Virus record (IMG/VR): IMGVR_UViG_2529292716_000011
Source: a virus
Lineage: Duplodnaviria > Heunggongvirae > Uroviricota > Caudoviricetes
DNA length: 48,128 nt
Reading direction: 5' to 3' (one strand)
Of the stretch, positions 2,575 through 48,128 are shown piece after piece. The position numbers and the translations under genes were made by a program. The first letter of the stretch is position 1, and each line of letters starts with the position of its first letter. The notes beneath the pieces were generated by a model, which saw nothing but the letters and a program-made list of their open reading frames with translations, did not search any database and was not told where the DNA came from.

Positions 2575-2649
2575 GTCCTCTTAGTTAAATGGATATAACG
2601 AGCCCCTCCTAAGGGCTAATTGCAGGTTCGATTCCTGCAGGGGACACCA
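2575..2649 (+). tRNA. argW: tRNA-Arg (anticodon CCU)
   Basis: 75 nt; 7-bp acceptor stem GTCCTCT with AGGGGAC; anticodon stem agccc/gggct with loop ctCCTaa; 3' CCA encoded. Confidence 0.92.
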
Positions 2650-2810: not shown

Positions 2811-3968
2811 ATGCTCACCGTTAAGCAGATTGAAGCAGCAAAGCCGAAAGAAAAACCATACCGCCTTCTCGATGGTAATGGCCTGTACCTTTATGTTCCT
2901 GTATCCGGGAAAAAGGTATGGCAGCTTCGCTACAAGATTGACGGTAAGGAGAAAATCCTGACCGTCGGAAAATATCCGCTTATGACTTTGCAGGAAGCAA
3001 GGGATAAGGCATGGACTGCGAGGAAAGACATCTCGGTTGGCATCGTTCCGGTAAAGGCGAAAAAGGCTTCGTCTAACAACAATTCATTTAGTGCGATTTA
3101 CAAGGAATGGTACGAGCACAAGAAGCAAATCTGGTCAGTAGGCTATGCAACTGAACTTGCCAAAATGTTTGATGACGACATTTTACCCATCATCGGCGGT
3201 CTTGAGATTCAGGATATTGAGCCGATGCAACTGCTGGAAGTAATCCGCAGATTTGAAGATCGCGGTGCAATGGAGCGAGCCAACAAAGCCCGCAGAAGAT
3301 GCGGCGAGGTTTTTCGTTACGCTATTGTCACCGGAAGGGCTAAATATAACCCGGCACCTGACCTTGCAGACGCCATGAAAGGATACCGCAAGAAGAACTT
3401 CCCGTTCCTTCCAGCAGACCAGATGCCTGCATTCAACAAAGCACTGGCAACATTTTCAGGAAGTATCGTATCGCTCATTGCGACCAAAGTTTTACGCTAC
3501 ACAGCCCTAAGAACAAAAGAGCTTCGTTCCATGCTATGGAAGAACGTCGATTTTGAAAACAGGATTATCACCATCGACGCCAGTGTGATGAAGGGACGCA
3601 AAATTCATGTGGTCCCGATGTCAGACCAGGTGGTTGAACTTCTCACTACGCTAAGCTCAATCACCAAACCAGTCTCAGAGTTTGTTTTTGCCGGGCGCAA
3701 CGATAAGAAGAAGCCAATCTGCGAGAACGCGGTATTGCTTGTGATCAAACAAATCGGCTATGAAGGTCTGGAAAGCGGTCACGGATTCAGGCATGAATTC
3801 AGCACGATTATGAACGAGCACGAATGGCCTGCTGACGCTATTGAAGTGCAGCTGGCACATGCCAACGGCGGATCTGTGCGCGGTATTTACAACCATGCTC
3901 AGTATCTCGATAAGCGCAGAGAAATGATGCAGTGGTGGGCGGATTGGCTTGATGAAAAAGTGGAGTAA
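2811..3968 (+). CDS. intS: P4-type tyrosine integrase (IntS-like)
   Basis: Integrase translation immediately downstream of the tRNA 3' end; start chosen at ATG 2811 (MLTVKQIEAAK, 385 aa); the ORF track's upstream start 2775 gives 397 aa. Confidence 0.85.
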   Translation: MLTVKQIEAAKPKEKPYRLLDGNGLYLYVPVSGKKVWQLRYKIDGKEKILTVGKYPLMTLQEARDKAWTARKDISVGIVPVKAKKASSNNNSFSAIYKEWYEHKKQIWSVGYATELAKMFDDDILPIIGGLEIQDIEPMQLLEVIRRFEDRGAMERANKARRRCGEVFRYAIVTGRAKYNPAPDLADAMKGYRKKNFPFLPADQMPAFNKALATFSGSIVSLIATKVLRYTALRTKELRSMLWKNVDFENRIITIDASVMKGRKIHVVPMSDQVVELLTTLSSITKPVSEFVFAGRNDKKKPICENAVLLVIKQIGYEGLESGHGFRHEFSTIMNEHEWPADAIEVQLAHANGGSVRGIYNHAQYLDKRREMMQWWADWLDEKVE

Positions 3969-4177: not shown

Positions 4178-4630
4178 AAACTGCGTGTTACGTTCGCCCT
4201 GGACTGTTGCGATCGTGAAGCCATAGACTGGGCCGCAAGCACGGGAGGTTACGATAAAGCGACAGTGCAGGATGTCATGTTAGGAGCGATAGAAAAACGC
4301 TTTGGCGATAAAGTACCGGAACAGTCCATCCAGTGGCTGACAGATAACGGTTCAGCGTATAGAGCGCATGAAACACGGCAGTTCGCCAGAGAGTTGAATC
4401 TGGAGCCCTGCACAACGGCAATCAGCAGTCCTCAGAGTAATGGAATGGCAGAAAGGTTCGTGAAAACGATGAAGGAAGACTACATCGCGTTCATGCCGAA
4501 ACCGAATGTAAGAACGGCATTGCATAATCTTGCAGTGGCGATCGAACATTACAATGAAAACCATCCGCACAGTGCGCTGGGTTATCGCTCTCCGCGAGAA
4601 TATCGACGTCAGCGGGTAACGTTAACTTAA
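4178..4630 (+). pseudogene. IS2-group transposase OrfB, C-terminal fragment (no start codon)
   Basis: In-frame similarity to IS2 InsD begins near 4178 ([14 protein letters not shown]) upstream of the first Met at 4265; DDE-domain C-terminus present. Confidence 0.65.
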
Positions 4631-4671: not shown

Positions 4672-5414
4672 TCAGATTCCCTGGTGAGTAAGAATTTTAC
4701 TTTCTGAACTCCTCTGAGAGTATTGACTTGGAGAAACACCAAAATAACGTCTAAATACATAAGTAAAGTATGAGACACTGGCATAACCACAGACCTTAGC
4801 TACTTTACTAATAGGATAACAACGAGTGCTGAGTAAATATTCAGCCATTTGCATCCTCTCATCAAGTATGATCTTACTGAATGATACCCCCTCTTCTTTC
4901 AATTTCATCTTTAGTAAACTTTCGCTGAGATATAATCTTGATGATATATCCTTAAGACGCCATGGTGCAGATAAATCCGTATGAATAATCGTTTTAACTT
5001 TAGCCCTGTGCTTTTCAAACATCCAAACAGAAATACTCCAAATTGTTTTTCAGAAGAAAATGCAGAGAGACATGTAAAAGCAATAGACTCATCAAAAATT
5101 TCTATGTATTCAGCACAGTGATTAGCCCAACTAATTAATCCTTTAATTAAACTGAAGTCAGCAAAGTTTATTTTTAAATAAGATAGATATTCCCTACAAT
5201 CAGAAATATCCCTTAAGTTATTAGCTTTCAAATAGCGACTAATAAACTCAGCGCCAAAATCCGCCACTATCACTCTTTCAGGATATGTCAGGAAAAAATC
5301 TCTAGAGCTAGAGTCGACAAGTACAGATGAACCTCTCTCCAGAAACACACTCTCTTTTCCGAAATAAACATCAAAGGACTCCAAAATCAATATAACTGAA
5401 CATGTAGTTGCCAT
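4672..5414 (-). pseudogene. AraC/XylS-family regulator (AppY/YdeO/GadX-like), frameshifted
   Basis: N-terminal ORF 4911-5423 and C-terminal HTH ORF 4672-5022 overlap in different frames; C-terminus matches the AraC HTH signature (WRLKDISSRLYLSESLLKMKLKEEG...CGYASVSYF); AT-rich. Confidence 0.6.
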
Positions 5415-5444
5415 ATCATCCACCCAATTGGTAATGACTCCAAC

Positions 5445-5948
5445 TTATTGATAGTGTTTTATGTTCAGATAATGCCCGATGACTTTGTCATGCAGCTCCA
5501 CCGATTTTGAGAACGACAGCGACTTCCGTCCCAGCCGTGCCAGGTGCTGCCTCAGATTCAGGTTATGCCGCTCAATTCGCTGCGTATATCGCTTGCTGAT
5601 TACGTGCAGCTTTCCCTTCAGGCGGGATTCATACAGCGGCCAGCCATCCGTCATCCATATCACCACGTCAAAGGGTGACAGCAGGCTCATAAGACGCCCC
5701 AGCGTCGCCATAGTGCGTTCACCGAATACGTGCGCAACAACCGTCTTCCGGAGACTGTCATACGCGTAAAACAGCCAGCGCTGGCGCGATTTAGCCCCGA
5801 CATAGCCCCACTGTTCGTCCATTTCCGCGCAGACGATGACGTCACTGCCCGGCTGTATGCGCGAGGTTACCGACTGCGGCCTGAGTTTTTTAAGTGACGT
5901 AAAATCGTGTTGAGGCCAACGCCCATAATGCGTGCAGTTGCCCGGCAT
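5445..5948 (-). CDS. insB: IS1 InsB frame (expressed as InsAB' by -1 frameshift)
   Basis: 167-aa ORF; A6C slippery motif present upstream. Confidence 0.9.
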
Positions 5949-6142
5949 CCAACGCCATTCATGGCCATATCAATGATTTTCTGGTGCGTACCGGGTTGAG
6001 AAGCGGTGTAAGTGAACTGCAGTTGCCATGTTTTACGGCAGTGAGAGCAGAGATAGCGCTGATGTCCGGCAGTGCTTTTGCCGTTACGCACCACCCCGTC
6101 AGTAGCTGAACAGGAGGGACAGCTGATAGAAACAGAAGCCAC
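5867..6142 (-). CDS. insA: IS1 InsA
   Basis: 91 aa, [16 protein letters not shown]...; zinc-finger/HTH protein of IS1. Confidence 0.92.
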
Positions 6143-6946
6143 TGGAGCACCTCAAAAACACCATCATACACTAAATCAGTAAGTTGGCAGCATCACCAGC
6201 CTTCTTGAGGCTACCACCTGTTTTCAGGTGTCATTCAGACGTGATTTGCCCCAGATTGGGAAAGCACGCTTTTTTCTCAGCTATCGTCCTCTTATTTTGC
6301 CGTTACATTTCTTTTTGCATTCTAATGATTAATTTACAATAATAATATCGGTAATTATTGAGTAATAATAAATTAATTATTGCAAATGTAATTTAATTCC
6401 ATCTTCGCGTTATATTCCAATCTTTAATCTCCGCATGGAACAAGTTGCATGCGTGACTATATTAAGACGACTTATAACCACCAAAACATTTGCTTTGCAA
6501 GCAAAAACAGTGACCATTGACTCTAAGAAAATTCCGATCTATTGTTAGGGTCATCAAAGTTACTTAACAGTATTCCGAAATGAAAATACAAAGCAAGCTA
6601 ATTGTCTTATTAAACATTATTATTGCATTTATATTATTTGAGCTTTTAGCTCAAAAATTTGGTTTGAGTACATTATTTTAAAGCAAGATAAACAATATCG
6701 GGCACTCTAGTTTTTATAATTAACAATTAAACGTCCATAAAATGTTATTTACTTTTCTTCGCTATTGTCATATCTTAATATAGTGGCTTACGCCACTCTA
6801 CTTTCATCACATTTTGTACGTTTATGTACTCGCCATGAAGCTCTTTCATGGCGATTTTTTATTCTTAATCCAAGAACATACTCCCTACCTATAGCAAAAT
6901 CACTTTTTTAACAAAAGAATAACGTATTTAGGTAATCATTACGAAT

Positions 6947-31345: not shown

Positions 31346-32251
31346 CTATATTTCCAGACATCTGTTATCACTTAACCCATTACAAGCCCGCTGCCGCAGA
31401 TATTCCCGTGGCGAGCGATAACCCAGCGCACTATGCGGATGCCATTCGTTATAATGCTCGAACGCCTCTGCAAGGTTCTTTGCTGCCGTTAACCCGTCTG
31501 GTTTGGGCATGATACTGATGTAGTCACGCTTTATCGTTTTCACGAAGCTCTCTGCTATTCCGTTACTCTCCGGACTCCGCACCGCCGTGTTCTTCGGTTC
31601 AAGTCCCAACATCCGGGCGAACTGGCGTGTTTCATTAGCCCGGTAGCATGAACCATTATCCGTCAGCCACTCCACTGGAGACGACGGAAGATCGTTGCCG
31701 AAGCGGCGTTCCACCGCTCCCAGCATGACGTCCTGTACTGTTTCACTGTTGAAGCCGCCGGTAGTCACCGCCCAGTGCAGTGCCTCACGATCACAGCAGT
31801 CCAGCGCGAACGTGACACGCAGTCTCTCTCCGTTATCACAGCAGAACTCGAACCCGTCAGAGCACCATCGCTGATTGCTTTCTTTCACGGCCACTCTGCC
31901 TGTATGTGCCCGTTTCGATGGCGGTACAGCAGGTTTTCGCTCAAGCAACAGCGCATTCTGGCGCATGATCCGGTAAACACGTTTGGCATTGATCGCAGGC
32001 ATACCATCAAGTTCTGCCTGTCTGCGAAGCAGCGCCCATACCCGACGATAACCATACGTGGGCAGCTCTCCGATAACATGGTGTATACGGAGAAGCACAT
32101 CCGTATCATCAGTGTGACGACTGCGGCGGCCATCCATCCAGTCATCGGTTCGTCTGAGAATGACGTGCAACTGCGCACGCGACACCCGGAGACAACGGCT
32201 GACTAAGCTTACTCCCCATCCCCGGGCAATAAGGGCGCGTGCGCTATCCAC
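31346..32251 (-). CDS. insD: IS2 transposase InsD
   Basis: 301 aa; DDE transposase. Confidence 0.92.
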
Positions 32252-35401: not shown

Positions 35402-36168
35402 GGTGATGCTGCCAACTTACTGATTTAGTGTATGATGGTGTTTTTGAGGTGCTCCAGTGGCTTCTGTTTCTATCAGCTGTCCCTCCTGTTCAGCTACTGA
35501 CGGGGTGGTGCGTAACGGCAAAAGCACTGCCGGACATCAGCGCTATCTCTGCTCTCACTGCCGTAAAACATGGCAACTGCAGTTCACTTACACCGCTTCT
35601 CAACCCGGTACGCACCAGAAAATCATTGATATGGCCATGAATGGCGTTGGATGCCGGGCAACAGCGCGCATTATGGGCGTTGGCCTCAACACGATTTTAC
35701 GTCACTTAAAAACTCAGGCCGCAGTCGGTAACCTCGCGCATACAGCCGGGCAGTGACGTCATCGTCTGCGCGGAAATGGACGAACAGTGGGGCTATGTCG
35801 GGGCTAAATCGCGCCAGCGCTGGCTGTTTTACGCGTATGACAGTCTCCGGAAGACGGTTGTTGCGCACGTATTCGGTGAACGCACTATGGCGACGCTGGG
35901 GCGTCTTATGAGCCTGCTGTCACCCTTTGACGTGGTGATATGGATGACGGATGGCTGGCCGCTGTATGAATCCCGCCTGAAGGGAAAGCTGCACGTAATC
36001 AGCAAGCGATATACGCAGCGAATTGAGCGGCATAACCTGAATCTGAGGCAGCACCTGGCACGGCTGGGACGGAAGTCGCTGTCGTTCTCAAAATCGGTGG
36101 AGCTGCATGACAAAGTCATCGGGCATTATCTGAACATAAAACACTATCAATAAGTTGGAGTCATTACC
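35402..36168 (+). mobile_element. IS1 copy 2 (767 bp) with 8-bp target duplication CCAATTTT; one A missing from the frameshift A-run
   Basis: Terminal repeats present; CCAATTTT at 35394-35401 and 36169-36176; slippery run is A5C where copies 1, 3 and 4 have A6C, so insA reads on to 99 aa. Confidence 0.93.
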
Positions 36169-38798: not shown

Positions 38799-39085
38799 GC
38801 CTTAATAACCCCCTCTTTCAGCCAGATAACCTGCGTTCTCGCCATACCTTCCAGCGCGCATTCTTTTGCATACTCAGCATCGACAAAATATGTGCGGCGG
38901 TCGATTTCGTCGTGACAGGCAGAACATGCAATGGTGGCAATCAGGTCTGGCGGTTTGATACCGGTACCGCACAATCCAGCCAGCCGGATATGTGCCAGTA
39001 CTGACGTTTCAGGATTGCCATTACATACGCCAGGGATTCTTACCTGGCATTCCCGACCACGCGCTGCTTTTCTCAAATCAGCCAT
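38795..39085 (-). CDS. ybcO: DUF1364 protein (YbcO-like putative nuclease)
   Basis: Cys-rich translation; start taken at [10 protein letters not shown] after an AGGAGG RBS (ORF track start 39124). Confidence 0.75.
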
Positions 39086-39248
39086 GATTCCTCCTTGCTG
39101 CCAGTCGCAACCATTTTTTATCAACCAGGCTAGCGGTATATCCGAGCAGTGTTGGTATTTCGGATGGCTTCAGCTCAGGCTTACGCTTACGACGATTTGA
39201 TACTCTGTAGATGTGCCCGTTCATGACACGAATAAGCGGTGTAGCCAT
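39078..39248 (-). CDS. ninE: NinE-like small protein
   Basis: 56-codon ORF below the ORF-track threshold, translated by hand ([56 protein letters not shown]); overlaps the ninB stop (TAATG) and the ybcO start. Confidence 0.6.
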   Translation of the reverse strand: MATPLIRVMNGHIYRVSNRRKRKPELKPSEIPTLLGYTASLVDKKWLRLAARRNHG

Positions 39249-39703
39249 TACGCCTCCTGCTTATCGCGCAGCTGCTGGTATTCACAGCTCTGCGGAATTG
39301 TCAGGTGGCAGCCGATATTCATCGCCCAGGCTTCGACTTTGCACAGGAAGATGTACATCTCGCCGGTTTCCAGCTCTGACGTATGGCGGAGGGATTGGAC
39401 GGTGGTGACCTCGCCGGACACGACATCTACACGGTCTTTGCTTTCGTAGCCGAGATAGGTGTGCTTCATCGCGTCTTTGACCCACTCAGGCGTAGCGAAG
39501 GTCTTGCCGCGGGCGATGAGATATTCGCTGATCTCCGTGTACCACATGTGGCTGAGCGCGTTCTGCGACAGGCTGCGCTTCTCGCGCCACGGCTTAACCT
39601 GCAGGCGTAAGCATTGCCCGGCATCCAGCAATGGCTGAATCTGCTGGCCGATGGCCGCGAAGTTACCGCGATGGAGTTTGATGCCGTCTACTGGCAGAGT
39701 CAT
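39248..39703 (-). CDS. ninB: NinB/YbcN-family recombination protein
   Basis: 151 aa; NinB-like motif RSLSQNALSHMW. Confidence 0.8.
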   Translation of the reverse strand: MTLPVDGIKLHRGNFAAIGQQIQPLLDAGQCLRLQVKPWREKRSLSQNALSHMWYTEISEYLIARGKTFATPEWVKDAMKHTYLGYESKDRVDVVSGEVTTVQSLRHTSELETGEMYIFLCKVEAWAMNIGCHLTIPQSCEYQQLRDKQEA

Positions 39704-39967
39704 ACGGCCTCCCTAACGGAAACCGCAGAATGCAGAAAATCGCAGGTGCATTTCTGCATCTGTGACAAGGTGATGAGTTCAGATTGTGGTCGCATTTAAG
39801 TCCCCTTAAATGCGCAGAAGTCACCGGAGTTGTTCAGGCTCCGATGAGAGGATTATGGCGGATTGATTACGATAAATCAAAACTATCTTGAAGCCAAAAC
39901 AGTGATCTTCGCTTTAAAAACCTTGTATACTTTCACCTAATCACAGCCAGAACTATGGATCTAACCA

Positions 39968-40345
39968 ATGACCAACAAAGAAAACAAAGATAAATATATT
40001 AACAAGTTCAAGAAAGAGCTTTCAAAATATATACAACCAACTGCTGGAGTGGACATTCAATTATTTAACTCTAAGGATGGTGGTGGTGTAATTAAAGCCA
40101 CTTTGAATAGAAGTGGAAAAAGAAAATCATCTATTGCTGGTAATTTTACTAAATTAGGTGAGGCAATTACCTCGAGTGGGCAGAGGGTTTTTGGTGGTGA
40201 TCTATCAAATGTGAATTTTTACGGAACAAATACGATTTTTGATGGAGATACAATATTTTTAATTAAATCACCTGATTCAGAGGAGTGGTCATCACAAAAA
40301 GCTTCCAAAGACGTAGAGGGCATCGTATTTGGAGGGAAAAAATGA
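39968..40345 (+). CDS. hypothetical soluble protein (125 aa), AT-rich
   Basis: Lys-rich; no signal peptide or TM; no family recognised; opposite strand to the nin genes. Confidence 0.55.
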   Translation: MTNKENKDKYINKFKKELSKYIQPTAGVDIQLFNSKDGGGVIKATLNRSGKRKSSIAGNFTKLGEAITSSGQRVFGGDLSNVNFYGTNTIFDGDTIFLIKSPDSEEWSSQKASKDVEGIVFGGKK

Positions 40346-40427
40346 TTAACATTACTACTAAGGATGCACTCAAGTCAGTGGTGAAGTAAGAGATCTAGTA
40401 ATTCTTCTTGAAACTGATGGAAAAACG

Positions 40428-40769
40428 GTGTCTGATTATTTGCAGCCAATCCCTCCCAAAAAAGATACACACTGGAGCATGATTTTCATTCCGGTAGCAA
40501 TTTATATACTACTTAATCTTGTATACATTATTGCTCACCCATTATTTCCTGAAAAATATCTAAAAACATCAACATCTATATTTCTATTCATTTCCTTCAT
40601 ATTAAGTGCAATAGTAGCATATTTTGTTTTCCATAAGCATAAATCTGCCACTCTATCCATATGCAGCTTAGTGTTCTTAGTGTTAATTGTAGGTGCTAAC
40701 GTAGGGTTTATCAGTTACAGCGACCTAACACAAAAAGCGACGCAAAAATTAGATAGTTTGTCTAAATAA
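40428..40769 (+). CDS. hypothetical small membrane protein (about 3 TM), AT-rich
   Basis: ORF begins at GTG 40428; a better start is ATG 40479 preceded by GGAG; three hydrophobic helices. Confidence 0.5.
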   Translation: MSDYLQPIPPKKDTHWSMIFIPVAIYILLNLVYIIAHPLFPEKYLKTSTSIFLFISFILSAIVAYFVFHKHKSATLSICSLVFLVLIVGANVGFISYSDLTQKATQKLDSLSK

Positions 40770-41208
40770 TTATGTTGCCATGCGAAGTATGCATGGCTGC
40801 ATGTCTGCCTTCCATTTAAAATGGGCTAAGACCTATAACCCTAAATATTATTCTTTATTATCTTCTTTACCACTTCGGTGATGCTGCCAACTTACTGATT
40901 TAGTGTATGATGGTGTTTTTGAGGTGCTCCAGTGGCTTCTGTTTCTATCAGCTGTCCCTCCTGTTCAGCTACTGACGGGGTGGTGCGTAACGGCAAAAGC
41001 ACTGCCGGACATCAGCGCTATCTCTGCTCTCACTGCCGTAAAACATGGCAACTGCAGTTCACTTACACCGCTTCTCAACCCGGTACGCACCAGAAAATCA
41101 TTGATATTGTCAGCGCCAGTGATATAAGACGGTAATTCGCCATTTGGATTGTCCGCTCCACCCAACATGTTGTTTCCTTAAGGTTCTCACACCAGAAAGG
41201 ACATCAAC

Positions 41209-43178
<1,970 letters not shown>

Positions 43179-43259
43179 CGAAAGTATTTAGCGGGCATGA
43201 AAATGGCAAATAACGGTCAAACATCGTGGCGTTGACAATATGGCCATGAATGGCGTTGG

Positions 43260-43763
43260 ATGCCGGGCAACTGCACGCATTATGGGCGTTGGCCTCAACA
43301 CGATTTTACGTCACTTAAAAAACTCAGGCCGCAGTCGGTAACCTCGCGCATACAGCCGGGCAGTGACGTCATCGTCTGCGCGGAAATGGACGAACAGTGG
43401 GGCTATGTCGGGGCTAAATCGCGCCAGCGCTGGCTGTTTTACGCGTATGACAGTCTCCGGAAGACGGTTGTTGCGCACGTATTCGGTGAACGCACTATGG
43501 CGACGCTGGGGCGTCTTATGAGCCTGCTGTCACCCTTTGACGTGGTGATATGGATGACGGATGGCTGGCCGCTGTATGAATCCCGCCTGAAGGGAAAGCT
43601 GCACGTAATCAGCAAGCGATATACGCAGCGAATTGAGCGGCATAACCTGAATCTGAGGCAGCACCTGACACGGCTGGGACGGAAGTCGCTGTCGTTCTCA
43701 AAATCGGTGGAGCTGCATGACAAAGTCATCGGGCATTATCTGAACATAAAACACTATCAATAA
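43260..43763 (+). CDS. insB: IS1 InsB frame of interrupted copy 3
   Basis: 167 aa, one substitution relative to copy 1. Confidence 0.85.
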
Positions 43764-43911
43764 GTTGGAGTCATTACCCGCTTGCAGTAACGGCGAAAGG
43801 GGCAATGACAGCGCTGCCATGTCGACAAGAACTGGAATAGTGAGAAGTAAACGGCGAAGTCGCTCTTATCTCTAAATAGGACGTGAATTTTTTAACGACA
43901 GGTAGGTAATT

Positions 43912-45159
43912 ATGGCACTGAATATTCCATTCAGAAATGCGTACTATCGTTTTGCATCCAGTTACTCATTTCTCTTTTTTATTTCCTGGTCGCTGTGGTG
44001 GTCGTTATACGCTATTTGGCTGAAAGGACATCTAGGGTTGACAGGGACGGAATTAGGTACACTTTATTCGGTCAACCAGTTTACCAGCATTCTATTTATG
44101 ATGTTCTACGGCATCGTTCAGGATAAACTCGGTCTGAAGAAACCGCTCATCTGGTGTATGAGTTTCATCCTGGTCTTGACCGGACCGTTTATGATTTACG
44201 TTTATGAACCGTTACTGCAAAGCAATTTTTCTGTAGGTCTAATTCTGGGAGCGCTCTTTTTTGGCCTGGGGTATCTGGCGGGATGCGGTTTGCTTGACAG
44301 CTTCACCGAAAAAATGGCGCGAAATTTTCATTTCGAATATGGAACAGCGCGCGCCTGGGGATCTTTTGGCTATGCTATTGGCGCGTTCTTTGCCGGCATA
44401 TTTTTTAGTATCAGTCCCCATATCAACTTCTGGTTGGTCTCGCTATTTGGCGCTGTATTTATGATGATCAACATGTGTTTTAAAGATAAGGATCACCAGT
44501 GCGTAGCGGCGGATGCGGGAGGGGTAAAAAAAGAGGATTTTATCGCAGTTTTCAAGGATCGAAACTTCTGGGTTTTCGTCATATTTATTGTGGGGACGTG
44601 GTCTTTCTATAACATTTTTGATCAACAACTTTTTCCTGTCTTTTATGCAGGTTTATTCGAATCACACGATGTAGGAACGCGCCTGTATGGTTATCTCAAC
44701 TCATTCCAGGTGGTACTCGAAGCGCTATGCATGGCGATTATTCCTTTCTTTGTGAATCGGGTAGGGCCAAAAAATGCATTACTTATCGGTGTTGTGATTA
44801 TGGCGTTGCGTATCCTTTCCTGCGCGCTGTTCGTTAACCCCTGGATTATTTCATTAGTGAAGCTGTTACATGCCATTGAGGTTCCACTTTGTGTCATATC
44901 CGTCTTCAAATACAGCGTGGCAAATTTTGATAAGCGCCTGTCGTCGACGATCTTTCTGATTGGTTTTCAAATTGCCAGTTCGCTTGGGATTGTGCTGCTT
45001 TCAACGCCGACTGGGATACTCTTTGACCACGCAGGCTACCAGACAGTTTTCTTCGCAATTTCGGGTATTGTCTGCCTAATGTTGCTATTTGGCATTTTCT
45101 TCCTGAGTAAAAAACGCGAGCAAATAGTTATGGAAACGCCTGTACCTTCAGCAATATAG
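43912..45159 (+). CDS. cscB: sucrose:proton symporter CscB (oligosaccharide/H+ symporter, LacY family)
   Basis: 415 aa, 12-TM MFS permease; translation recognised as CscB from memory; no cscK/cscA/cscR nearby. Confidence 0.8.
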   Translation: MALNIPFRNAYYRFASSYSFLFFISWSLWWSLYAIWLKGHLGLTGTELGTLYSVNQFTSILFMMFYGIVQDKLGLKKPLIWCMSFILVLTGPFMIYVYEPLLQSNFSVGLILGALFFGLGYLAGCGLLDSFTEKMARNFHFEYGTARAWGSFGYAIGAFFAGIFFSISPHINFWLVSLFGAVFMMINMCFKDKDHQCVAADAGGVKKEDFIAVFKDRNFWVFVIFIVGTWSFYNIFDQQLFPVFYAGLFESHDVGTRLYGYLNSFQVVLEALCMAIIPFFVNRVGPKNALLIGVVIMALRILSCALFVNPWIISLVKLLHAIEVPLCVISVFKYSVANFDKRLSSTIFLIGFQIASSLGIVLLSTPTGILFDHAGYQTVFFAISGIVCLMLLFGIFFLSKKREQIVMETPVPSAI

Positions 45160-45514
45160 ACGTAAACTTTTCCGGTTGTTGTCGATATCTCCCTATCCCT
45201 CAACCGGAAAATAATAATACTAAAGTGCTTAGCCCGGCTAATAATCACCTAATCCAAACGCCTCATTCATGTTCTGGTACAGTCGCTCAAATGTACTTCA
45301 GATGCGCGGTTCGCTGATTTCCAGGACATTGTCGTCATTCAGCGACCTGTCCCGTGTATCACGGTCCTGCGAATTCATCAAGGAATGCATTGCGGAGTGA
45401 AGTATCGAGTCACGCCATATTTCGCTATCAGGATTCTGTGTGATGGTTACATCGCCCGGCCCAGGGCTGTTTAGTCATCAGCGCTTTCTGACAGTGCTGA
45501 GATTTCAACCTGTT

Positions 45515-45650
45515 GCAGTAAAAATGAGTAGATATAAGGCAAGTGTGCTGCCAAACCCATCTTTTACGGGGTGCAACCTGTTGCAGTAAAAATGAGTAGA
45601 TATAAGGCAAGTGTGCTGCCAAACCCATCTTTTACGGGGTGAAGGTAGAT
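45515..45650. repeat. perfect tandem duplication, 2 x 68 bp
   Basis: 45515-45582 and 45583-45650 are identical (caacctgttgcagtaaaaatgagtag...ttttacggggtg). Confidence 0.95.
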
Positions 45651-45667
45651 TTCGTTTGAAGGGTATC

Positions 45668-45682
45668 TGGTGTCCCCTGCAG
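45668..45682 (-). other. att-like core: inverted 15-nt copy of the argW 3' end
   Basis: tggtgtcccctgcag is the reverse complement of the last 15 nt of the tRNA (ctgcaggggacacca, through CCA); similarity stops at the tRNA terminus. Confidence 0.6.
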
Positions 45683-45755
45683 ACATCTACTTGAGGCGGC
45701 AGGGGATTGATTGGAATGCTGTTTTTTAGATTTGAAAAATATTTTACCCGCTATT

Positions 45756-45956
45756 TTACCCATTGGCGCGGCTTAAGAGCTTATTTTTGAATTCACAATG
45801 GTCACGATATAACCATCTTGCTCGTCCGTGGATAACTTTGGCTTTAGGCAGGTCGCCGGACTTAATCCGGTCATAGATGAAGGTCTTACCGAAGCCAGTA
45901 TCAGCCATGATGAATTTCAAATCAACCAGTGAATCAGGTTGTAGTTCGTGTTGCAT
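45756..45956 (-). CDS. torI: AlpA/TorI-family excisionase-like DNA-binding protein
   Basis: 66 aa; winged-helix AlpA signature; length, N-terminus and position at the far end of an argW island fit the KplE1 RDF TorI (identity from memory). Confidence 0.6.
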   Translation of the reverse strand: MQHELQPDSLVDLKFIMADTGFGKTFIYDRIKSGDLPKAKVIHGRARWLYRDHCEFKNKLLSRANG

Positions 45957-46078
45957 GAGTGCTATCTCCGAATATGGAATCGAACCTGCAAATCAGGCAA
46001 TAAAAAGCCGCATTGATGCAGCAATGGTAGGTCTGGATATCTTGAGAAATGAACAGGCCTCATCGAGTGTGAGGCGGG

Positions 46079-46423
46079 TTAGTCCTTGCGTAGCTCGCTG
46101 ATTCTTCTGTAAGTCTCTGGTGCTTTGTTCCCGTACGTCTTCATTTCAGACTTCAACAGAGCAACGAGTGAATCCCATTCGTTGAGGATTCCTTTGAATG
46201 CCGGAACGCGCTTTGCAACCTTGTCGAATGAATCTCTGATTTCTGGAATCTGCTCAACAAGTGCAACGCATCGCCGAAAGTCTGCTGCGTCATGGGGAGC
46301 GCCGAAGTGATGACCATAGATATTCTTTTTCAGGCCACATGCGATTGAGGCAAGAGTTGCGCTACTGATGCCGACATCGCCAGTTGATTGCCATTTCAAA
46401 ACCTTCATAGCCAAATCTGACAT
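46079..46423 (-). CDS. hypothetical protein (114 aa)
   Basis: No family recognised. Confidence 0.5.
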   Translation of the reverse strand: MSDLAMKVLKWQSTGDVGISSATLASIACGLKKNIYGHHFGAPHDAADFRRCVALVEQIPEIRDSFDKVAKRVPAFKGILNEWDSLVALLKSEMKTYGNKAPETYRRISELRKD

Positions 46424-46739
46424 TTCTTGTCTCCATAAAACAAAACTCGCCGTAGCGAGCTCAGATAAAAGAAATCCCCGTCAGTGCGAGGATGCTGTTC
46501 ATTGCTGCTATACACTTTTTTGCTCTCAACGTAAGCGGTAGCCCATTCTGTTGGGTTGGTCAGTTGCTTTTAGGAAATGCTCTTTACCCCTTAAACGTCG
46601 GCTGAAAGAGCTAAAATCCATGCAAAAAATTTACGCAATTTTGTGTATTATTGTGCAGTAAGTAATGAGCTATTTTCTGTGCAAAAAATGGATGATAAAT
46701 TTGTCCGGGGCAGGAAAAATTTTATGGGCGCTAAACATG

Positions 46740-47267
46740 AAAAAAGATTCGTATCCTTATTTGATTTGCATGACAGTTTCAGGGCTGATCTTTATTTTCC
46801 TTTTCTTCTGGTGGCGGGCAGATATCTACAGGGTCACGTTTCTTAATCAGAGTATATCCCACTATTACATTCTGTTTAGCATGGGAATAGCTTTTCTGTT
46901 ATCTCTGTTTTGGGTTAAGAAGGGGATAGTAAAACAAAGCGGCTGGAAGAGTCTGTCAGCATACCTTAAGGTTTATGCAGGGATATGCATATTTTCTGGA
47001 TTTTTTCTGATTATACCCCTTACAACACTAACTTATTTTTTGCCTGGAGAGACATCGTCTTATGTTGCACCGTATCGGTATACTTCCGGTAGTTCAAAAA
47101 GTTGTTCTGGAGCTGAGGTGGATGACCCCGATCTACATGAGAATATTCGCATTTGCTATCCGTATGGCAATTATGAGTACGATAATATTATCTATGTTGA
47201 AAAGAAAATTAATACATTAGGTGCGGTAGTGACATATGCACAGACCGCGCGTGATGATACTGAATGA
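46740..47267 (+). CDS. hypothetical membrane protein with Cys-containing C-terminal domain, AT-rich
   Basis: Likely start at MKKDSYPYLICMTVSGL (ORF track start 46665); 3-4 TM segments, then a soluble tail. Confidence 0.45.
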   Translation, partial: KKDSYPYLICMTVSGLIFIFLFFWWRADIYRVTFLNQSISHYYILFSMGIAFLLSLFWVKKGIVKQSGWKSLSAYLKVYAGICIFSGFFLIIPLTTLTYFLPGETSSYVAPYRYTSGSSKSCSGAEVDDPDLHENIRICYPYGNYEYDNIIYVEKKINTLGAVVTYAQTARDDTE

Positions 47268-47415
47268 GATAGTATATAGCGGGCAAGTTTTAGTTAATTT
47301 ATCGAGGTAATATAATTTACCTCGACTCGTTTATTCTGGTATGAATATTTCGCTTTACGATCGATTTTTATCTGATGATATCATGCGGTTTTCATATACT
47401 GACTTACTGTCTTTT

Positions 47416-48128
47416 GGTAATGACTCCAACTTATTGATAGTGTTTTATGTTCAGATAATGCCCGATGACTTTGTCATGCAGCTCCACCGATTTTGAGAAC
47501 GACAGCGACTTCCGTCCCAGCCGTGCCAGGTGCTGCCTCAGATTCAGGTTATGCCGCTCAATTCGCTGCGTATATCGCTTGCTGATTACGTGCAGCTTTC
47601 CCTTCAGGCGGGATTCATACAGCGGCCAGCCATCCGTCATCCATATCACCACGTCAAAGGGTGACAGCAGGCTCATAAGACGCCCCAGCGTCGCCATAGT
47701 GCGTTCACCGAATACGTGCGCAACAACCGTCTTCCGGAGACTGTCATACGCGTAAAACAGCCAGCGCTGGCGCGATTTAGCCCCGACATAGCCCCACTGT
47801 TCGTCCATTTCCGCGCAGACGATGACGTCACTGCCCGGCTGTATGCGCGAGGTTACCGACTGCGGCCTGAGTTTTTTAAGTGACGTAAAATCGTGTTGAG
47901 GCCAACGCCCATAATGCGTGCTGTTGCCCGGCATCCAACGCCATTCATGGCCATATCAATGATTTTCTGGTGCGTACCGGGTTGAGAAGCGGTGTAAGTG
48001 AACTGCAGTTGCCATGTTTTACGGCAGTGAGAGCAGAGATAGCGCTGATGTCCGGCAGTGCTTTTGCCGTTACGCACCACCCCGTCAGTAGCTGAACAGG
48101 AGGGACAGCTGATAGAAACAGAAGCCAC
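47416..48128 (-). mobile_element. IS1 copy 4, cut by the window end
   Basis: End ggtaatgactcc at 47416; insB 47431-47934 and insA 47853-48128 intact; A6C motif intact. Confidence 0.93.

Follow-up and report, generated by a model that had tools for sequence, protein, structure and literature searches.

The inverted 15-nt copy of the argW 3′ end that lies at positions 45668-45682 of the 48,128-nt stretch of DNA analysed here (the window) is the ordinary attR core of the KplE1/CPS-53-HK620-Sf6 argW module, and its non-direct orientation is secondary, having been caused by an inversion bracketed by IS1 elements. The locus is very probably the attR of a decayed lambdoid argW prophage in a Shigella sonnei-type chromosome, flipped by an IS1-mediated inversion of 3,637 bp. 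An earlier note on this DNA had proposed both that 45668-45682 is the far-end att core of an argW island and that the segment carrying it has been inverted; the former is borne out by collinearity with K-12, the limit of homology to phage attP sites and the flank of empty sites, and the latter by comparison with CEA224S and a split 9-bp target duplication.

The attR core and its recombination module

A pattern search located exactly two copies of CTGCAGGGGACACCA in the 48,128-nt window, one at 2635-2649 on the plus strand and the other as its reverse complement at 45668-45682, and no further copy was found in the window with up to two mismatches allowed, a setting at which shuffled sequence gave a mean of 0.11 matches. 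The first copy constitutes the final 15 nt of argW, a tRNA-Arg(CCU) gene at 2575-2649 (plus strand) which is the only tRNA gene detected in the window by ARAGORN and is identical to the K-12 gene, and it represents the attL core (16 nt if T2650 is counted). It had been claimed that the argW end recurs exactly as a reverse complement, that the match stops precisely at the tRNA terminus (CCA) and that a match of this length is unlikely by chance; all three points hold, the calculated expectation of a further exact copy, with both strands counted, being approximately 1e-4 (2 x 48,128 / 4^15). Short repeats do occur, and about 0.5 exact 16-nt inverted matches are expected over all pairs of positions in 48 kb; the probability that the 15-mer is a meaningless chance match is nevertheless negligible, given the low expectation for CTGCAGGGGACACCA itself, its termination at the CCA end, its placement relative to torI, which is that of K-12, and its coincidence with the exact limit of homology to both phage and bacterial reference sequences. 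A chance match was ruled out by the K-12 alignment, the phage attP matches and the flanks of empty sites, each of which is described below.

The gene that adjoins the inverted core is torI (45756-45956, minus strand), which reads toward the core and encodes a recombination directionality factor, or excisionase. It is a real open reading frame of 66 aa, the product of which is identical to K-12 TorI at 66 of 66 residues and gives a full-length match to the solved TorI structure, PDB 1Z4H (E=6.6e-43); TorI is also an inhibitor of TorR. The earlier description of this gene as AlpA/TorI-type stands with regard to TorI, while the AlpA part (Pfam Phage_AlpA) was dropped, as no Pfam family was matched at E<=0.001; there was likewise no NCBIfam family. 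The 66-aa frame was correctly placed beside the core, yet the distance of 88 bp given for it is measured to the distal edge of the core; from the torI stop codon to the core there are 73 nt.

The same spacing of 73 nt separates torI from pawZ in K-12, where the annotation of MG1655 places torI next to a 15-nt argW pseudogene of that name at the right end of the cryptic prophage CPS-53/KplE1. From approximately 46005 down to 45668, the minus strand of the window follows the K-12 torI-pawZ region collinearly, free of gaps and with a few substitutions (DNA identity of about 97% over the stretch that begins upstream of torI and reaches the core); past the final base of the core, the counterpart of pawZ, the similarity is lost. 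As in K-12, the partner attL is located at argW together with intS, which in the window (2811-3968, plus strand) encodes an intact KplE1/CPS-53-type tyrosine integrase of 385 aa carrying the Pfam domains Arm-DNA-bind_3, Phage_int_M and Phage_integrase, with three differences from K-12 IntS and no internal stops, while the attL region differs from that of K-12 at 6 positions in 241 aligned bases. The two sites are not alike in all respects: the K-12 core repeats the argW end directly, is flanked by dsdC and has a matching T as its 16th base, whereas in the window it is inverted, lies beside csc genes and has a G at that position; moreover, KplE1 comprises 10 kb in K-12, and the prophage of the window is a 40-kb lambdoid remnant. 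The KplE1 core has been published as a 16-nt duplicate, CTGCAGGGGACACCAT (PMC2951348), and 15 of these 16 bases are matched by the core at 45668-45682 (minus strand). In csc+ strains the native flanking base is G, which accounts for the G in place of T at the 16th position; every csc+ relative examined had G there. The recombination module consisting of attL, attR, intS and torI has been described by the Ansaldi laboratory as common to HK620, Sf6, CUS-3 and many argW prophages (PMC2951348, PMC3509656).

Comparison with phages and with unoccupied chromosomes placed the boundary at the same base from both directions. Nineteen phage records, among them HK620, Sf6, HK633 and Kapi1, match from upstream of torI only as far as query position 343, which corresponds to window position 45668, and a 16-nt attP core is annotated in the HK620 record at the place corresponding to this end of the match. 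In HK620, Sf6, HK633 and Kapi1 the order is torI/hkaC, attP core, int, and identity to the window amounts to 96-97% from torI through the P arm to the final base of the core; these are P22-like podoviruses with a contiguous attP, whereas the window holds a lambda-like siphovirus-type prophage with its attachment sites split into attL and attR. The P (phage) arm of attR, between the core and torI (45683-45755, minus strand), contains tandem GGGTAAAAT motifs that are conserved in the K-12 alignment and which, from their recurrence in attL and attR, are candidate integrase arm-type sites. On the bacterial side, the segment at 45160-45667 is 99% identical to DNA that directly adjoins a complete argW at empty sites of csc+ E. 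coli, and so represents the native argW flank (the B′ side of attB) of csc+ strains; these empty attB sites were obtained from a look-up of CscB, which returned E. coli contexts only. As phage homology and native bacterial flank both meet at 45668-45682, this is a true phage/chromosome junction, i.e. attR. The window thereby holds a core matching the argW end, torI reading toward it, phage similarity that ends at it and a partner attL with intS; it departs from the usual module in that the attL and attR cores are inverted, these being direct repeats in K-12 and CEA224S.

An exact 16-nt copy of the argW T-arm, TTGCAGGTTCGATTCC, is present at 45976-45991 (minus strand; argW 2620-2635, plus strand), 19 nt upstream of the torI start codon and in the orientation of the attR core, such that the last 30 nt of argW appear as two pieces around a 293-bp stretch containing torI. 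This copy is conserved in K-12 CPS-53, CEA224S and HK620, where it overlaps a feature annotated as a phage integration promoter / cII site, and it may derive from an older, longer block of identity that was split by torI, or from captured attL DNA. An Rfam scan of 45100-46500 returned nothing at E<=1, and a sigma-70 scan found no promoter-like site.

An IS1-bracketed inversion of the attR segment

The arrangement from which the window departs is found in E. coli CEA224S (NZ_CP166080.1), where the same prophage is bounded by two plus-strand cores that form direct repeats 48.4 kb apart. The gene order in this chromosome is yfdC, argW (plus strand), intS (plus strand), a full lambdoid prophage, the 200-aa and 114-aa genes, torI (plus strand) and the core (plus strand), beyond which lie cscB, cscK, cscA, cscR, dsdX′, dsdA and emrY. 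Alignment with blastn, using as query the window extended with its S. sonnei continuation, established that window positions 1396-38884 are collinear with CEA224S, that 43779-47415 is inverted at approximately 99.5% identity, and that collinearity resumes from 48184 of the extended window onward, the inverted and the following block sharing CEA224S bases 51486-51494, which are the 9-bp duplication discussed below. CEA224S thus carries torI-att-csc in the orientation opposite to that of the window. Both CEA224S and E. coli JNEC-KY177 resemble the window in the order from argW-intS through the tail, head, lysis and Q genes and in a torI-attR-cscB junction that is approximately 99.5% identical, while unlike the window they have direct cores, an intact cscK, no IS1 at these positions, a 68-bp unit present once and an intact early region (cI, N, O, P, exo/bet/gam).

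The inverted segment (43779-47415; 3,637 bp) extends exactly from IS1-3 (plus strand, ending at 43778) to IS1-4 (minus strand, starting at 47416), and comprises the 3′ end of cscK, cscB, attR, torI and two phage genes. The permease gene cscB (43912-45159, plus strand; Pfam LacY_symp, E=2.6e-193, in agreement with the annotation of relatives) forms the chromosomal side of attR, and the two phage genes adjoining torI (114 aa, minus strand, and 200 aa, plus strand; 46079-47267, the latter at 46665-47267) are the last phage genes retained there; neither product has a Pfam or NCBIfam family, and both genes adjoin torI likewise in CEA224S. That IS1-3 and IS1-4 bracket the cscB, repeat, att and torI segment exactly and in inverted orientation had been noted previously and is correct, with the amendment that IS1-3 is itself interrupted. 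As delimited by its terminal repeats and by join analysis, IS1-3 occupies 40877-43778 (plus strand) and contains an IS21-family element of 2130 bp at 41108-43237, with istA at 41209-42381 and istB at 42378-43178 (Pfam rve/Mu-transpos_C_2 and IstB_IS21), which is flanked by a 4-bp duplication of IS1 positions 228-231. The rate of re-inversion should consequently drop, as this insertion leaves only 231 bp and 541 bp of uninterrupted homology between IS1-3 and IS1-4. The terminal repeat of IS1-4 is located at 47416, and the element (47416-48128, minus strand) is cut by the end of the window; judging from the full copy in S. sonnei relatives it would extend to 48183.

A 9-bp IS1 target, CGCTTGCAG, is present at the inner flank of IS1-3 (43779-43787, plus strand), within cscK, of which just the last 62 nt (43779-43840, plus strand) are found here, cut off from the remainder of the gene; the match to the CEA224S locus begins at its position 6001, inside cscK (5148-6062). 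In the intact cscK of CEA224S these 9 bp are single-copy and contiguous with the sequences on either side, GTTGCGGAG-CGCTTGCAG-TAACGGCG. As the window ends inside IS1-4, the outer flank of this element was read from near-identical S. sonnei chromosomes (1 mismatch in an overlap of 828 nt), three of which carry CTGCAAGCG, the reverse complement of CGCTTGCAG, directly outside IS1-4, the matching junction string being present in all eight complete chromosomes; the S. sonnei chromosomes have the other part of cscK past IS1-4, on the opposite strand. Paired inverted target duplications have been described as the signature of IS-mediated inversion, and replicative transposition as a property of IS1-family elements (PMC4471558). 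The locus accordingly displays inverted IS1 copies at the exact ends of the segment and a 9-bp target divided between an inner copy and an outer one, the latter taken from relatives. As in the IS26-type and IS1-family inversions described previously (PMC4471558), an inverted IS pair brackets a segment with the target duplication inside and its reverse complement outside, while the present case differs from other IS-mediated inversions in that the inverted DNA contains a prophage att site, turning attL and attR from direct into inverted repeats. A duplication split in this way is what would be expected if IS1 had inserted into cscK and an inversion had parted the two sides of the insertion.

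Prophage decay and the proposed order of events

Between intS and IS1-3 the window contains the body of a defective lambdoid prophage (3969-40876), with open reading frames for tail, head, terminase, lysis, porin, Q and nin functions and a truncated P, collinear with the argW prophage of CEA224S. The entire immunity, replication and recombination region is missing (window 38885-40876), P being truncated at IS1-3. In JNEC-KY177, the closest relative, both of the sequences that adjoin the IS1 pair on its phage side are present, facing each other over a distance of 9,254 bp; the corresponding interval of CEA224S contains O, cII, cro, cI, N, gam/bet/exo and other genes next to them. On the phage side, the flanks of IS1-3 and IS1-4 (at 40876 and 47415), TACCACTTC and the reverse complement of CTGTCTTTT, do not form a second duplication, and because these flanks lack a matching duplication at least one added event, a deletion, must be assumed.

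Two other IS1 copies reside in the prophage body. IS1-1 (5430-6197, minus strand), as defined by its ends, is flanked by CACCCAATT and AGCCTTCTT and lacks a target duplication, a sign that a further deletion next to IS1 may have taken place shortly downstream of intS. IS1-2 (35402-36168, plus strand), similarly defined, is bordered by an 8-bp duplication, CCAATTTT, as in a simple insertion, and is 767 bp long owing to a 1-nt deletion. There is also a 285-nt inverted repeat of 74% identity (4332-4616 and 31387-31671), the left arm of which overlaps a 117-121-aa rve_3 transposase remnant next to intS while the right arm is situated in a 301-aa open reading frame (31346-32251); the two arms are probably diverged copies or remnants of IS3-family elements within the prophage.

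What the site is, that its segment has been inverted, that an IS1 target was duplicated and that phage genes were deleted are all demonstrated, and from these findings we infer an order of events. The ancestral locus would have read yfdC-argW(attL)-intS-prophage-torI-attR-cscB-cscK-cscA-cscR-dsdA, with cores in direct orientation. An IS1 copy in the early region of the prophage would then have given rise to an adjacent deletion of some 9 kb of early genes, after which the 9-bp target in cscK would have been hit and the 3,637-bp segment inverted, either by an independent IS1 insertion in cscK followed by homologous recombination between the inverted IS1 copies, or in one step by intramolecular replicative transposition, the two routes leaving identical junctions. 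The IS21-family element would have entered IS1-3 later. IS1-3 and IS1-4 differ at 2 of 768 positions, and since they do so a recent one-step duplication of IS1 is not directly supported; pairwise comparison of all the IS1 copies gave 1-4 differences.

Distribution of the arrangement and alternative explanations

A look-up of the exact 200-aa protein returned complete S. sonnei chromosomes, including those of Ss046 (CP000038.1) and CP022672.1, in which the local gene order is that of the window, and eight complete S. sonnei chromosomes share all four junction strings. Neither IS1 junction of the inverted segment was found in 5,426 complete E. coli genomes, where only the unique 300 nt matched, and the exact junction pattern had no match in GTDB representative genomes. 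In an index of the 200-aa protein, 2,925 of 3,350 blocks were on contigs of 2-5 kb, and a lineage-wide arrangement fits, as the protein occurs mostly on contigs of this size. Two observations that would have told against the inversion were looked for: no directly oriented core bounding the island is present in the window or in approximately 9 kb beyond it in relatives, and no genome was found with the inverted arrangement without flanking IS1.

Past the end of the window the S. sonnei chromosomes contain the rest of IS1-4, the 5′ part of cscK (minus strand) with an IS3-family element, an IS4 element, cscA, cscR, a dsdX fragment, dsdA and emrY. In the eight chromosomes the csc locus is broken at three places, with cscA and cscR intact, in agreement with a study of Shigella (PMC11251922) in which S. 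sonnei csc loci interrupted by IS1, IS3-family and IS4 elements were reported. The bacterial flank between cscB and the core contains a perfect tandem duplication of 68 bp (45506-45641), which creates a spurious 66-aa open reading frame at 45428-45628. The unit occurs twice only in the window and in S. sonnei CP022672.1, which thus has this rare duplication too; it is present once in the seven other S. sonnei chromosomes, CEA224S and the empty attB sites. In csc+ E. coli the argW core is occupied by CP4-like islands (CbeA/RadC/antirestriction), a resolvase-bearing element or other torI prophages, or is empty, and as unrelated elements and empty sites share this core, argW-csc represents a multi-element integration hotspot.

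The only serious alternative to a genuine inversion is mis-orientation of the segment by the assembler. A segment between inverted repeats can be placed in either orientation during assembly, and reference-guided finishing could propagate one of the two. In that case IS1 would simply have inserted into cscK, leaving the 9-bp duplication and attR both in direct orientation, and such an un-inverted isomer would indeed be perfectly regular, with the direct duplication around IS1-4 and IS1-3 at the deletion junction; furthermore, draft assemblies break exactly at both IS1 junctions, leaving contigs of 3.5 kb (two examples). We nevertheless regard an artefact as very unlikely, as the eight complete chromosomes were deposited independently and show the four junctions of the window, while none shows the junction strings of the un-inverted isomer.

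The earlier note's other option was a separate event. Under this reading the core and torI would be what is left of a second, independently integrated argW-type element, or a transposed piece of DNA, rather than the far end of the prophage that starts at 2649. The unrelated islands at the same core in other csc+ E. coli would be in keeping with such an origin, as would the unmatched phage-side flanks of the IS1 pair. However, the segment with torI and the 114-aa and 200-aa genes is the natural right end of the collinear prophage in CEA224S and JNEC-KY177, the bacterial DNA adjoining the core is the flank native to argW, with cscB, and the rest of cscK lies past IS1-4 with the complementary 9-bp duplication, a combination that nothing simpler than inversion in place explains in full. 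A separate event is rendered unnecessary by the collinear relatives and the complementary cscK halves, and we consider it highly improbable. Inversion of the prophage's own attR between IS1-3 and IS1-4 is accordingly the reading adopted here.

Consequences for the prophage and for Shigella sonnei

Strand exchange by lambda-family integrases between inverted cores inverts, and does not excise, the intervening DNA. The attL and attR of the window are now inverted repeats with an identical 15-bp core, 43 kb apart, and given this orientation we infer that excision of the prophage by IntS and TorI is ruled out, so that these proteins could at most invert the 43 kb. A module in which intS, torI, the attL region and the P arm of attR all appear intact by sequence would therefore no longer be able to release the prophage. 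It is conceivable, though rather unlikely, that the site acts as a site-specific switch, in which IntS and TorI flip the 43-kb prophage remnant between two states. Were this so, the flipped state would join argW to the native csc flank and create a torI-core-intS arrangement equivalent to an in-chromosome attP, with predicted junctions argW-core-GATACCCTTC...cscB and torI-core-TTTATCAGTTCG...intS; TorI expression would invert rather than cure the prophage, and S. sonnei would permanently keep torI (the TorR inhibitor), the porin and other accessory genes. No flipped 43-kb state was encountered in the S. sonnei assemblies examined, because the two gene orders hold throughout, all contigs with this IntS variant reading yfdC-argW-intS and all S. 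sonnei loci having cscB beside torI.

Inversions mediated by IS elements are common in Shigella. TorI, IntS and the att site with its core are already well characterised, and the inversion is a new instance of a known process; a literature search found no paper describing this particular inversion. Its significance lies mainly in annotation, since the argW attR core (pawZ/torI) has been studied extensively and its rearrangement by IS1 is routine. For programs that predict prophage boundaries, it implies that a missing direct repeat may reflect a local inversion. For S. sonnei, it extends the picture of csc break-up, with cscB and the 3′ end of cscK on the strand opposite to the rest of the locus, and it provides a clean example of an IS-mediated inversion that grounds a prophage by making its att sites inverted repeats, with integrase and excisionase left intact.
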